Positions 21,604-32,683 of a stretch of 64,000 nt of DNA are shown here, piece by piece. Source of the DNA: an uncultured Candidatus Peribacteria bacterium (GTDB lineage: Bacteria; Patescibacteriota; Gracilibacteria; UBA1369); assembly GCA_964582265.1 (NCBI GenBank), contig CAZOQT010000001.1:943-64942 (forward strand), given 5' to 3'. The notes beneath the pieces were generated by a model that had not been told where the DNA came from, did not search any database, and saw only the letters and a program-made list of their open reading frames with translations. Both the position numbers and the translations under genes were made by a program. How positions within the stretch are numbered: the first letter of the stretch is position 1; each line of letters starts with the position of its first letter.

Positions 21604-22107
21604 ATGGCAACACTAGCACCAAACAAGAAAACCAAAAAAACCGCTAAGGATAAATCTTTAGGGCAAAGAACAGAGGCACGTTTGGCACAGGAAAATCAGT
21701 GGCAGCAATATAACTCAGTCGCAAAGTTTTTTCCTGGTGAAATGGATAAGAGTTTACACGCATTAGCAGAAAAAACATTCCCAACCGACGAATTAAACTG
21801 CCGAGCATACGAAGAAGCAATCGTAAAATCGCTTACAGAAACCTTAAGTCCAGAAGTTGGTGTTAAAGATTTTTGGGGAAAAATGGGAGAAGCAGGCTGC
21901 AAAGAACTAAGAATTGAAGACGGACATTTAAGCTTTTATGCCAGCAAAAAAGACCGCATCGACATTACGCCGTATACACAACCAATCGTCTTTGAAGCAC
22001 ATTCAAGCTATTACGACCAAAGAGTAATTGAAAGAAAACAAAGAATCGAACAGGCCAAAAACCAGTTACAAGATTTACTCGCAGAAATTAACCAAACAAG
22101 AAGATAA
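21604..22107 (+). CDS. Hypothetical protein (167 aa), possible paralog of the N-terminal module of the downstream giant protein
   Basis: ATG ORF on the same strand as the giant genes. It shares collinear landmarks with aa 80-165 of the 1,964-aa protein (see findings). Confidence 0.6.
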   Translation: MATLAPNKKTKKTAKDKSLGQRTEARLAQENQWQQYNSVAKFFPGEMDKSLHALAEKTFPTDELNCRAYEEAIVKSLTETLSPEVGVKDFWGKMGEAGCKELRIEDGHLSFYASKKDRIDITPYTQPIVFEAHSSYYDQRVIERKQRIEQAKNQLQDLLAEINQTRR

Positions 22108-22229
22108 ATGTTGATTACGCCGCGCTACATATAAGCGCAAGTGCAGGCGAATGAAGATAGCCACAAAAGGTTTCCGCCGCACTTAAGACCCTCCCCTCAC
22201 CTATAAAATAAAAAACTAAACCCAAAAAT

Positions 22230-31300: not shown

Positions 31301-32683
31301 TTTACTCCTGGCGCTGCAAACACTACTGCTACGATTACCGATCCAATTGCAAATGGGATTCAAGGCAAATTACTACCTGAAGGTTATGGTCCAGGCGGAA
31401 AAATTGTTTACGCAAATAATTTAAATGTAAGCGTACCACCATGTCTAAACTCAACATCAAGCAACTGTTACACGGGTGACATTGGCAACTTTGCCGGACT
31501 TAAATTGGTTCGCGTAAATCAGCCAGTAACAATCACTTACGATGGTCGCATTATCAATTCCAAAATTAATGATGACAGTTGTCAGAACCTTGGTTACTGT
31601 GAAGAGTTCTTTGAAAACAGAGCAACAATTATTAATTCACAAGTTGAACGTGAATCAGATATTTACATATACAGACAAAACTTTGAAAGTAACGTTGTTC
31701 GTGTACAAATCTTCTGTCAGTACATTTTAAGTCGCGCCTCCGGTGATATTTTCTTGGAGACAGACTTGAACGCAGGAATCAATGTTTATCGTTGTTTCCC
31801 ATACAAGAGCACAACCGGAACAATTACCACAATTATAACTACGCCACCAATCGTCCCAAAGACTGGTGCAGGTGAAATAGTTACTATTGATCATGAAGTT
31901 TGCGCTCAAGGCACAACAGGAGAAATTGGCAAATTATATGGTCAAGGCGACAAAGACAGTAAAGGACTTTCCAGCCAAATTTGTGAAATCAAATTAGGTG
32001 GATCAGCCGGCCAACTAGCTACCAAAGAAACTTACACCAACAGTATCAAAGAAAATGTAAAACGTGTTGCTCGTTGGGAACCAAACTTAGAAAAAAACGC
32101 AGGATCTTCAACTTCTGTAATTACATCAATCACAAATGCAGATCAACAATCAACAGGCATCAACCTTGATGGCGTCTACCATAAAAAAGGCGGAAATCTG
32201 TTTGTAGGCGGAGAAGGCAACTTTATGAAAGATGGCGATGGTGCCAAAACTTTCATTGTTGAAAATGGAGATCTGTACATTACAAAGGACATCAAGATTG
32301 GCGGATGTGAAAATTACTGTTCCCCACGTGAAACAGCAGCACTAGCCTTTGTAGTACTTAATGGTAACGTTTACATTGCACCAGATGTAAAAGAAGTAGA
32401 TGCTGTGATTTTCGTACAAGGCAATACCAATAATAAGGGCCAGGTTAAATCAGGCAGATACATTAACGGTAAAGCTACAGAAGAAGTTTCTTTAAAACAA
32501 TTAGTGGTTAAAGGTTCAATTTACGGTGACATTAAACCTCTACTAAAGAAGCGCGTTTACGCTGGCGATCCAGCTTTGAACGAAGGTAGCATAGTTATCC
32601 GCACAGATGAAAGAATTTTCATCAACACTCCTCCAGGCTTGCAAGACTTGGTCGATGTAAAATCAGAGATTACTGCAAACTAA
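28340..32683 (+). CDS. Giant secreted modular surface protein (1,447 aa)
   Basis: Signal peptide MFKTKIKIWLILTAFMSLAVNAYPVFA. Four Cys-bracketed modules (C-x2-L-x-[LI]...), a PIPAADSLAPND repeat linker, a poly-Pro hinge (PLPPPPPP), a DUF11-like segment, and a C-terminal region of about 450 aa. No LPXTG motif or C-terminal TM helix was seen. Confidence 0.9.
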   Translation: MFKTKIKIWLILTAFMSLAVNAYPVFATAIYNQDCTLGVFSYDIGPNSKEFIDDKSNQYDKYIQYLPNECKKHLDYPEKSAQGMPYQHPDVPVYNDNHVQSLAELDHVRMPWAEHEHAYFNGKDATKEDFYYKSFLKKFEIEIQPDGIKNLNFGNGQSIDNLNCNIETPLGYLGNDQNKIKKTVADLLDCSGTVDDTNFWGGVSISKKYATLKNGQKGIIVTWEYGTKDMYKMPEIFANNGNGGDGKGFRIYIKNGNSTQVDLNNYQTLTLSDPYHRDAQFGVHFLTKNQPNGANIWSATTTSRALIADFAMYKKNYPQNFLKGCVSNDATNAESGWCQTYPDNYKSYEKSLVNKNFFYWFPIGSVGTIWKTPLAPSQPLACTGLTLNPSSWVAGKPTTFTVTPTFSDNKNHNLDYEWKASHWFGDSEKFFDVNLNPEKILPIPAADSLAPNDSKISPIPAADSLAPNDNKISPTPAADSIKPNVKDIKIDKKLPIKIPGGANLLGANLLAALGNNQNAAQKPASEKAANLARTPALPTDLLGLGFFTDNANTFDYGNPYTDIDNNSQFGPVDDTSTYYTGSKGQVPVLITVKAVNPREAIDLTKCQAQLVIPVLPTPGKVCNSLKIYRNGQEFPGAISINDPANPTDKLTLKVDKSAGLDLDYTWEAKSGNTTTGTFSGVKAKGPANPLTSTDETDPTTYKGPSQNAITKVKVNAYNTADKSKTTLCSDEFIMTPPGITPNVCTALNLTVNGTPVSSFNNFQPGQSYTLAVNPTNQKAPNPNQVKWNEQGDGTLKPVAGSPASCAVSNVPANGNTQFTAPANCKYIYTAAAGGSVFAEVVNDIDPSISVPDVCKASFTVPRPPEEQVCQNLTLIPQGNNKYCVSTNPGEYATQTVWGTSNGANLTTTDNGTCVIAPPTDSGYTLTVNVPGQSNCQAQTPIAPLPPPPPPRIVKEVMSNQMDGFRKVVSIAPLDVAPQNNIVHYRLTFTPGAANTTATITDPIANGIQGKLLPEGYGPGGKIVYANNLNVSVPPCLNSTSSNCYTGDIGNFAGLKLVRVNQPVTITYDGRIINSKINDDSCQNLGYCEEFFENRATIINSQVERESDIYIYRQNFESNVVRVQIFCQYILSRASGDIFLETDLNAGINVYRCFPYKSTTGTITTIITTPPIVPKTGAGEIVTIDHEVCAQGTTGEIGKLYGQGDKDSKGLSSQICEIKLGGSAGQLATKETYTNSIKENVKRVARWEPNLEKNAGSSTSVITSITNADQQSTGINLDGVYHKKGGNLFVGGEGNFMKDGDGAKTFIVENGDLYITKDIKIGGCENYCSPRETAALAFVVLNGNVYIAPDVKEVDAVIFVQGNTNNKGQVKSGRYINGKATEEVSLKQLVVKGSIYGDIKPLLKKRVYAGDPALNEGSIVIRTDERIFINTPPGLQDLVDVKSEITAN
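29663..29790 (+). repeat. 48-bp in-frame tandem repeat, about 2.6 copies (PIPAADSLAPNDxKIS)
   Basis: Units start at 29663, 29711 and 29759. Copies 1 and 2 differ at 7 positions, 6 of them synonymous. Confidence 0.85.

Follow-up and report, generated by a model that had tools for sequence, protein, structure and literature searches.

What is the function of a block of four genes, two of them giant, that sits among housekeeping genes in the genome of an uncultured Candidatus Peribacteria bacterium? The block lies in a 64,000-nucleotide stretch of contig CAZOQT010000001.1 (assembly GCA_964582265.1, positions 943–64,942), hereafter the window, where four open reading frames (ORFs), all on the + strand, occupy the interval between tpiA and holA. 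These are g167 (21604–22107), encoding a leaderless protein of 167 amino acids (aa); G1 (22230–28124), encoding a leaderless, Cys-poor and Lys/Glu-rich protein of 1,964 aa; mini (28154–28306), encoding a 50-aa peptide with one transmembrane (TM) helix; and G2 (28340–32683), encoding a 1,447-aa protein with a Sec leader and 28 Cys. An initial annotation, made from the sequence without database searches, had given the four genes these positions and lengths and had regarded them as an orphan accessory island and the best candidate for a cell-surface or host-interaction system, with everything else in the window being housekeeping; an ORF check and Pfam annotation confirmed the four genes and their tpiA–holA interval, and Pfam likewise agrees on their surroundings. 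We propose, as a tentative reading that we rate as somewhat short of probable, that the block is an operon specific to Peregrinibacteria/Peribacteria that serves as a cell-surface contact apparatus with a recombining variable cassette.

The block occupies one position among relatives. A word-indexed search with G2 recovered 17 relatives besides itself, the few that are named being Peregrinibacteria or Altimarinota hypothetical proteins. G2 relatives were placed in the genomes of 12 GTDB species, which carry the labels Peregrinibacteria, Peribacteria, Patescibacteria-group or Gracilibacteria, with further loci on contigs from Logan, JGI and ENA. At every locus having upstream sequence, a same-strand ORF of 1,600–2,400 aa lies immediately 5′ of G2, and the giant/giant pair, usually together with a small upstream gene, is found at the hpf/tpiA–holA slot on about 19 distinct Peregrinibacteria/Peribacteria contigs. 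The commonest order is hpf/tpiA, small gene, G1, (mini), G2 and holA, followed, as in the window, by gatCA, a cytidylyltransferase gene and ftsX. Small gene, G1, (mini) and G2 occur in this order at the slot at loci L001, L002, L004, L009, L010, L019–L021 and L024–L026, and a giant ORF lies directly upstream of G2 at L006, L008, L011 and L013–L018. The initial annotation had named conservation of the four-gene order and co-location in related genomes as checks on its proposal. Co-location held at every related genome found, and the pair of giants, usually with the small gene, recurs; the full order does not, as mini is missing at loci where the gap between G1 and G2 is below 50 nt (L004, L010/L025, L014, L019 and L024) and a g167-type gene is missing at two Peribacteria loci, L014 and L015. 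At L014, a 574-aa ORF (1542–3266) stands in place of the g167-type gene, and at L015 a 2,418-aa G1 (2594–9850) comes next to tpiA with nothing between; the small gene thus seems open to replacement or fusion.

The accessory status did not survive this comparison. The same core slot is used across the class, the GC content of the four-gene block is unremarkable and shows no anomaly, no mobile or phage genes were found, no integrase or tRNA gene adjoins the block, and the remaining window genes are housekeeping by Pfam. Given the fixed slot in relatives, the unremarkable GC content and the housekeeping surroundings, the block is, on comparative grounds, a vertically inherited, lineage-specific core locus and not an accessory island. 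It is accessory-like in the alleles that fill its central 7.1 kb and not in its occurrence.

This central part is replaced wholesale between strains. Compared with contig L001 (Logan ERR8482633), the window DNA is 99.4% identical over 12426–22317 and 99.1% identical over 29409–38224, and the flanking proteins and g167 are 98.6–100% identical (g167, 99.4%); across 22318–29408, blastn found no similarity to L001. This strain-variable cassette comprises G1 from codon 30, mini and the N-terminal domain of G2, for which protein identities are about 20–24% or undetectable: G1 can be aligned only along its N-terminal ~250 residues (31%), apart from two weak patches further on, mini has no alignment at all to its L001 counterpart, and the G2 N-terminal domain is 23–24% identical, as against 99–100% for G2 from residue ~373 on. 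The left junction is razor-sharp and falls right after G1 codon 29, the preceding 29 conserved codons (MKTNKNFLQLKNCIPGTADSLLKRAVFEG, 22230–22317) being near-identical in DNA to L001 with one mismatch in 88 nt. On the right, the breakpoint is no more than ~15 codons away from the boundary between the G2 domains; identity climbs through a conserved YWFPIGSV and is full from that boundary (...LAPSQPLACTG) onward. In its G2 N-terminal domain, the window has a lower similarity to its own species-mate than to any other examined genome, and the window G1 groups with L004, L019 and L024 (~60% housekeeping identity) and with neither L001 nor the sister species L020. Discrete G1 types can thus be told apart (A, B and C, besides singletons), and their distribution is incongruent with the similarity of g167 and of housekeeping genes.

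A third strain, L026/L028 (Logan DRR685533), carries the allele type of the window and differs in an internal G1 tract (24387–27137, ~aa 720–1636), in which the synonymous divergence (dS) is 0.09–0.19 and the ratio of nonsynonymous to synonymous divergence (dN/dS) is ~0.1, compared with a dS of 0–0.01 in the flanks, the rest of G1, mini and the G2 N-terminal domain. The three sampled genomes are three haplotypes. These alignments establish both the cassette replacement and a second recombination tract, so that recombination is recurrent, and they place G1 under purifying selection. Cassette-type allelic replacement at surface loci is familiar from the S-layer gene slpA of Clostridioides difficile and from the C-terminal (CT)/immunity modules of polymorphic toxins. 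The block resembles these cassettes in its near-identical backbone, deeply diverged alleles, sharp junctions and types incongruent with the species tree, but the proteins are unrelated, none was recognized as belonging to a toxin or immunity family, and the swapped unit consists of most of G1, mini and one G2 domain. On a smaller scale, the window and L026 differ in G2 by 30 substitutions in 200 nt within a low-complexity linker (29800–29999) and by a 9-nt indel at 30266–30274, variation that fits reports on large Peribacter proteins (PMC4736985).

Turning to the proteins themselves, none of the four products, searched as single sequences and as family profiles, had a significant match in Pfam, NCBIfam, PHROGs, PADLOC or PDB sequences; weak matches to SAM_Exu, Lysis_col, MokW-like, AbiA, ilvD and Hda were taken as chance or compositional. 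The earlier statement that the block matches no nameable family therefore stands for these libraries; it does not stand within the block, where g167 is homologous to G1 aa 55–163 (BLASTP E 1e-4). A profile–profile alignment of the g167 family with the G1 N-terminus (hhalign) gave a probability of 97.4% and E 1.4e-11, and together the two alignments identify g167 as a stand-alone paralogue of the G1 N-terminal domain (22392–22718). Possibly, g167 acts as an adaptor or chaperone for this homologous domain of G1, or pairs with it. Relatives of G1 are few: aa 765–1964, run exhaustively by HMMER against 1.84 billion representative proteins, returned only 22, of which ~10 are full length at 30–33% identity, and a word-indexed search with G1 returned only one, even when a 4-sequence profile was used. 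One distant match to the G1 profile, P0021 (JGI, 3,229 aa, on a contig of 138,742 bp; E 2.8e-20, 9% coverage), may be a still larger relative or may share a domain outside the syntenic family. A motif scan found no Walker A, HExxH, RTX or LPxTG motif in G1 or G2, in agreement with the initial annotation, which had seen neither a Walker A nor a metalloprotease motif in the giants. That annotation had also named confident full-length homology of both giants to characterized families, such as S-layer proteins, phage tail fibres or RTX/adhesin classes, as evidence against its proposal; the searches above found none. In particular, the block does not fit the RTX/type I giant adhesins, as GGxGxD repeats (motif GG.G.D) are absent and its neighbours are housekeeping genes, not ATP-binding cassette (ABC) or membrane fusion protein (MFP) genes.

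The first 28 residues of G2 form, by eye, a Sec-type leader with a basic n-region, a hydrophobic core and a VFA|TA site, and the protein has 28 Cys, with Cys positions that are invariant in the family. The family architecture consists of a conserved ~350-aa N-terminal domain, a variable stalk and a conserved, Cys-rich ~500-aa C-terminal domain. In the window protein, the N-terminal domain (28424–29455, ~aa 29–372) contains family-invariant Cys, His and Trp residues; the stalk (29456–31171) holds four Cys-bracketed modules (aa 382–606, 622–728, 744–869 and 883–935) with repeat and low-complexity linkers, including a 48-nt tandem repeat found by a repeat scan (29663–29776); a poly-Pro hinge, PPPPPP (31172–31189, aa 945–950), follows; and the Cys-rich C-terminal domain (31190–32680, aa 951–1447) is 100% identical between strains. 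The signal peptide, the four modules, the repeat linkers and the poly-Pro hinge had all been recognized in the initial annotation.

The fold of G2 was modelled on its homologue P0012 (1,064 aa, 33% identical) from an 18-sequence alignment. The N-terminal domain of P0012 is confidently predicted as all-beta, with a predicted local distance difference test score (pLDDT) of 80–90. In a Foldseek search, the P0012 model had 14 PDB matches at E ≤ 1e-3, mostly immunoglobulin-like (Ig-like) domains of Gram-positive adhesins and pilins: PrgB (2e-7), SspB C123, Cna, CNM, a Mobiluncus adhesin and B. anthracis TIE. The other matches at this threshold include integrin, V. cholerae cytolysin and TTHA1873, and UafA, RrgA and BcpA match at 1.4e-3 to 3.8e-3. 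Pfam SpaA_2 or Big_4 is present in the stalk of 3 of the 18 G2 homologues, and the window G2 itself has no adhesin match in Pfam or NCBIfam. Adhesin-like folds are thus predicted for the G2 family, and with them one part of the original surface and host-interaction proposal gains ground, the part that fell being the accessory status.

Set beside the Gram-positive adhesins and pilins (PrgB, SspB/SpaP, Cna/CNM, UafA, RrgA, BcpA), G2 is alike in its Sec leader, its predicted tandem beta-sandwich stalk and its variable, probably ligand-binding N-terminal end. It differs in the disulfide bracketing of its modules by 28 Cys, in its conserved but unannotated ~350-aa N- and ~500-aa C-terminal domains, and in having a leaderless giant as its partner. 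It also differs from the sortase-anchored members in lacking a C-terminal LPxTG, TM segment and basic tail and in staying below Pfam thresholds: its C-terminus (...NTPPGLQDLVDVKSEITAN) is not hydrophobic and has no LPxTG. A VPKTG (aa 1172–1176, 31853–31867) does occur within a linker rich in Pro, 275 residues from the C-terminus, and in 18 homologues this site follows the pattern hydrophobic-x-[KSE]-[TS]-G, with G1176 invariant and VPITG, FPKTG, IPKTG and LAETG among the variants. The site is similar to motifs recognized by sortases, but what lies downstream is a folded domain instead of a TM anchor; VPKTG could be a processing site. As judged from the model, G2 is adhesin-like in its working and yet outside the sortase-anchored families, since it shares the Ig-like folds and not the LPxTG or the Pfam models.

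For G1, composition analysis (Lys 10.8%, Glu 8.2%, 3 Cys only) bears out the earlier description of a leaderless, Lys/Glu-rich protein with a Gly/Ala-rich core, which spans aa 990–1290, and a Pro-rich tail. The tail (27927–28121, aa 1900–1964) is Pro/Gly-rich and predicted to be disordered (pLDDT < 50), and a tail of like character is present in G1 orthologues. No upstream in-frame start is possible. The 29-codon N-terminus that precedes the cassette junction is kept in all three strains and in the sister species L020 and ends in a Gly-rich FEG or FEGGG, and remoter orthologues retain an R-x-V...G pattern there; this conserved segment may be a non-classical export or recognition signal. A double-glycine leader was considered and rejected, as its hydrophobic spacing is, by eye, off that of the canonical leader.

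The core of G1 is predicted to contain a beta-barrel. An AlphaFold2 model of aa 765–1964, built from 16 aligned sequences, had a mean pLDDT of 68 and a predicted template modelling score (pTM) of 0.40, with pLDDT values of 63–80 in the strands. In the model, aa 992–1143 (25203–25658) form nine amphipathic antiparallel strands of 6–19 residues each, six of them 13–19; a helical insert of ~80 residues (aa 1145–1225) separates these from a second group of long strands (aa 1231–1280, 25920–26069), and helical and small beta domains surround the strand core. The strands alternate aliphatic with Gly/Ala/Ser/polar residues, and one face of at least nine long strands has a mean Kyte–Doolittle value of about +2 to +3. 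Averaging the alignment columns over eleven orthologues (window excluded; 12–32% identity) gave the same alternation, in the same register, for 9 of 10 strands, and the predicted barrel is the most conserved part of G1. Foldseek matches had E 2.5e-3 or weaker over the two libraries searched. Against PDB, 26 of the top 30 were outer-membrane barrels, with probabilities up to 1.0 and E 5e-3 or weaker, including OpcA, OmpA, porins, NspA, OmpW, OmpT/Pla, NalP/EspP, CdiB and designed TM barrels; the remaining few, e.g., the FMO protein, were of low probability and not barrels. Against the viral models of BFVD, the matches were phage-borne porin and outer membrane protein (OMP) barrels, with target-normalized TM-scores up to 0.70, and no tail proteins.

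We therefore regard the core of G1 as a predicted, conserved, amphipathic OMP-type beta-barrel. It is like the OMP barrels (OmpA/OpcA/NspA/OmpW and the autotransporter and TpsB translocators) in its 10–13 predicted amphipathic strands with Gly/Ala/Ser versus aliphatic faces, but it lies in the middle of a protein of 1,964 aa, is broken by the ~80-aa helical insert, lacks a Sec signal peptide, stays below the thresholds of the Pfam models and belongs to a lineage thought to be monoderm. Because it is not C-terminal, it has no C-terminal beta-signal. To two-partner secretion systems (TpsB/TpsA, CdiB/CdiA), the likeness consists only of gene order and the presence of a barrel: G1, G2 and their orthologues had no match to ShlB, POTRA or Haemagg_act in Pfam or NCBIfam, and hence no POTRA or TPS domains. 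A bridge-like lipid-transfer beta-groove of the AsmA/TamB type was also considered for G1 and set aside, as the sheet is confined to ~200 of the 1,964 residues and its matches are to small barrels in their entirety.

The fourth product, mini, starts with a basic stretch, which is followed by one TM helix and a short tail with Gly-x-Glu at its end. Like peptides of 45–62 aa lie between G1 and G2 at eight other distinct loci, among them L001, L002/3, L006/7, L008, L009, L011 and L017, so that mini is, by this recurrence, a real gene. Its presence tracks species clade and not G1 type. Missing as it is from several related loci, it cannot be the obligatory link in the export or anchoring relationship that had been suggested for the block; it may instead be a dispensable single-pass membrane accessory. 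For such a relationship, the one concrete lead that we infer from the models is the predicted OMP-like barrel in the leaderless G1.

Together, these features may be joined into a cell-contact apparatus. G2 would be exported via Sec and form a disulfide-stabilized fibre of Ig-like modules, with its variable N-terminal domain as the exposed, probable ligand-binding end. G1 would be the membrane-embedded partner, an anchor or pore composed of the barrel together with large helical arms and small beta domains. Strains would swap the cassette of G1 body, mini and G2 N-terminal domain by homologous recombination in the conserved arms, and deeply diverged allele types would persist or move between lineages, a pattern to be expected when hosts or phages exert frequency-dependent selection on exposed structures. 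The surface location of G1, its contact with G2, the attachment to a host and the selective agent are what we infer in assembling this scheme, and the block would, on this reading, be the fast-evolving cell-contact apparatus of an uncultured and probably host-dependent bacterium.

Several observations weigh against this proposal. The N-terminus of G1 (MKTNKNFLQLKNCIPGTADSLLKR) lacks both a hydrophobic core and a signal peptide, no export route for G1 was identified from the window genes, and no secretion ATPase, BamA or sortase gene lies within the window. The barrel is predicted from one AlphaFold2 model of moderate confidence, with the mean pLDDT and Foldseek E values given above, and OMP models of Pfam match the barrel segments of orthologues only below threshold (Autotransporter, E 0.028; OMP_b-brl, E 0.1) and that of the window not at all. 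Bacteria of the candidate phyla radiation (CPR) described so far are monoderm (PMC8871954), which leaves an OMP-type barrel without an obvious home membrane. The fold of G2 was taken from P0012 and not from the window protein. Cassette replacement within a species is known from the three sampled genomes, the loci including no second same-species pair with differing cassettes. Finally, the types of G1 and of the G2 N-terminal domain are not co-inherited across genera: L010/L025 have a type-B G1, yet their G2 N-terminal domain groups with those of the type-A L004/L024, and L019 shows the converse. This argues against a tight lock-and-key pairing of G1 and G2. Strict co-adaptation of the two, initially considered since both lie in the cassette, was accordingly downgraded, and the joint replacement of G1 body and G2 N-terminal domain is no proof of co-adaptation.

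A bolder version of the proposal, which we consider unlikely, is that G1 represents a new protein class: a leaderless giant with a self-contained OMP-type barrel, in a bacterium without an outer membrane, that inserts either into a Gram-negative host's outer membrane or into an undescribed outer layer of the Peregrinibacteria envelope. Export of such a protein would proceed by an unrecognized route, perhaps with the 29-residue N-terminus as the signal and with the assistance of g167. G1 would then serve an epibiotic contact site as its conduit or anchor and G2 would be the adhesin, with the cassette alleles setting host or strain specificity.

Among the alternatives, the strongest, though it too strikes us as improbable, is that G1 and G2 do not attach to a host and are major components of the cell's own envelope, such as a scaffold resembling an S-layer or outer sheath whose foot in the membrane is the barrel, and that the variation stems from phage receptor escape, as for S-layer cassettes of other bacteria. 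The fixed core position of the block in every sampled relative lies among cell-envelope genes (mraY, a Mur ligase gene, Wzy and FtsX in the neighbourhood), G1 is under strong purifying selection, the variation is of the cassette type with sharp arms, and S-layer genes and a heavy investment in the envelope have been reported for Peribacter (PMC4736985), all of which would suit such a layer. However, Pfam and NCBIfam reveal no SLH or other known wall-binding or wall-anchoring module in any of the four products, so that the block fails as a known S-layer system; the P0012 model likens G2 to adhesin stalks and not to lattice-formers; and G1 has no signal peptide.

Rather less probable is that G1 is a polymorphic pore-forming effector that inserts its barrel into a target membrane, with mini as the immunity protein and G2 as the means of targeting to prey or host. 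The architecture of G1, with a conserved 29-residue N-terminus followed across a razor-sharp junction by a wholly variable body, is suggestive of this, as are the small membrane peptide encoded just downstream inside the cassette, the amphipathic nature of the predicted barrel and the near absence of Cys from G1. Many proteins that are translocated unfolded are nearly Cys-free. The candidate immunity protein is nonetheless absent at L004, L010/L025, L014, L019 and L024, all of which keep G1 and G2, and it follows clade and neither is universal nor co-varies with G1 type. Searches of Pfam and NCBIfam and a motif scan found no known toxin domain and no VENN, PxxxxDPxGL, Rhs or LXG motif, and no orphan immunity or toxin arrays were seen. 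Nearly all of the ~1,900 aa vary, not merely a C-terminal tip, and the barrel is the most conserved part. The absence of mini from many loci and the lack of a toxin motif thus weaken this explanation, and the block does not behave as a polymorphic toxin/immunity system.

Slightly less likely again is that G1 is an intracellular scaffold, that the barrel arises artefactually from the modelling of an amphipathic sheet rich in Gly, and that G1 and G2 are merely co-operonic, with variation arising from relaxed constraint and recombination. This would account for the missing signal peptide, the lack of a consistent TM helix over the orthologues and the Lys/Glu-rich helical bulk of G1, and it gains from the pTM of 0.40 and from there being no Foldseek match for G1 at E ≤ 1e-3. 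Relaxed constraint is, however, at odds with a dN/dS of ~0.1; hydrophobic strand faces conserved family-wide are unexpected for a solvent-exposed soluble sheet; and two independent structure libraries were both dominated by membrane barrels. That the block is a mobile or phage-derived island, e.g., a tape-measure or tail-fibre remnant, is very improbable: the giant genes, the Gly-rich hydrophobic centre and the fibre-like partner recall one, but the block keeps to one syntenic position throughout its relatives, is of unremarkable GC content, has no adjoining integrase or tRNA gene and no phage context, and its products have no PHROG match, no tblastn match of G1 or G2 in 50,697 phage genomes and, in BFVD, matches to phage-borne OMP barrels only and not to tail proteins.

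The block is flanked on the left by the triosephosphate isomerase gene tpiA (20728–21396, − strand) and on the right by holA, encoding DNA polymerase III subunit delta (32783–33892, + strand), both assigned by Pfam. A promoter-like site ahead of g167 (21531–21559, + strand; TTGAAT-17-TATAAT with an upstream TG) is a consensus match only, and the count of promoter-like sites in the region is not above that of shuffles. The terminator that the initial annotation saw as closing the block is real: an intrinsic terminator, consisting of a hairpin and then a U-run, lies 3′ of G2 (32695–32729, + strand), and the segment 32694–32732 folds at −19.3 kcal/mol (z = −3.96 versus shuffles). A consensus scan did not pick it up, probably because of the loop-length limit of the scan. 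The ORF of holA as called mechanically has a TTG start and 369 aa, related contigs have 338 aa and the L001 alignment begins at residue 32; the true start is probably a downstream ATG. The most variable flanking gene is the Wzy/O-antigen-ligase-like gene at 18725–20044, which is 98.6% identical to its L001 counterpart with an indel (439 versus 443 aa), its neighbours being 99.0–100% identical. Elsewhere in the window, three ORFs (7483–8871, 10056–11396 and 41632–43575; 462, 446 and 647 aa) have no Pfam match at E ≤ 1e-5; the 647-aa ORF adjoins relA, as does an unannotated 581-aa ORF in L004. The dnaA gene lies at 55331–56743 (− strand), and the cumulative GC skew drops near-monotonically over the 64 kb with no inflection near dnaA.

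That large variable surface proteins of CPR bacteria serve in attachment is a known idea. Peribacter has large Cys-rich extracellular proteins with strain variation, and the paper on 'Candidatus Peribacter riflensis' describes strain indels of tens of bp in such proteins (PMC4736985); for Vampirococcus lugosii, giant membrane proteins have been proposed to act in host attachment (PMC8080830). The giants described here are like these in clade, size, scant annotation, proposed attachment role and the concentration of strain variation (PMC4736985, PMC8080830). Both papers cover the class generally, and not this operon, a leaderless barrel giant, the g167 paralogy or cassette replacement at ~20% identity. 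The operon, both protein families, the leaderless giant with an OMP-like barrel and the replacement of a whole cassette (~20% identity in a 99%-identical backbone) thus appear to be undescribed.

Within the lineage, the operon is a concrete candidate, found lineage-wide, for the interface between CPR bacteria and their partner cells. To our knowledge, little is understood, except in Saccharibacteria, of the ways in which CPR/Patescibacteria attach to partner cells and obtain resources from them, and we know of no Peregrinibacteria in culture. The block is the most variable locus between otherwise clonal strains, as would be expected for a determinant of specificity, and its allele types could be used as a marker in strain-resolved metagenome ecology. 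If the predicted barrel of G1 is real, it would raise the question of where an OMP-type barrel sits in a monoderm cell.

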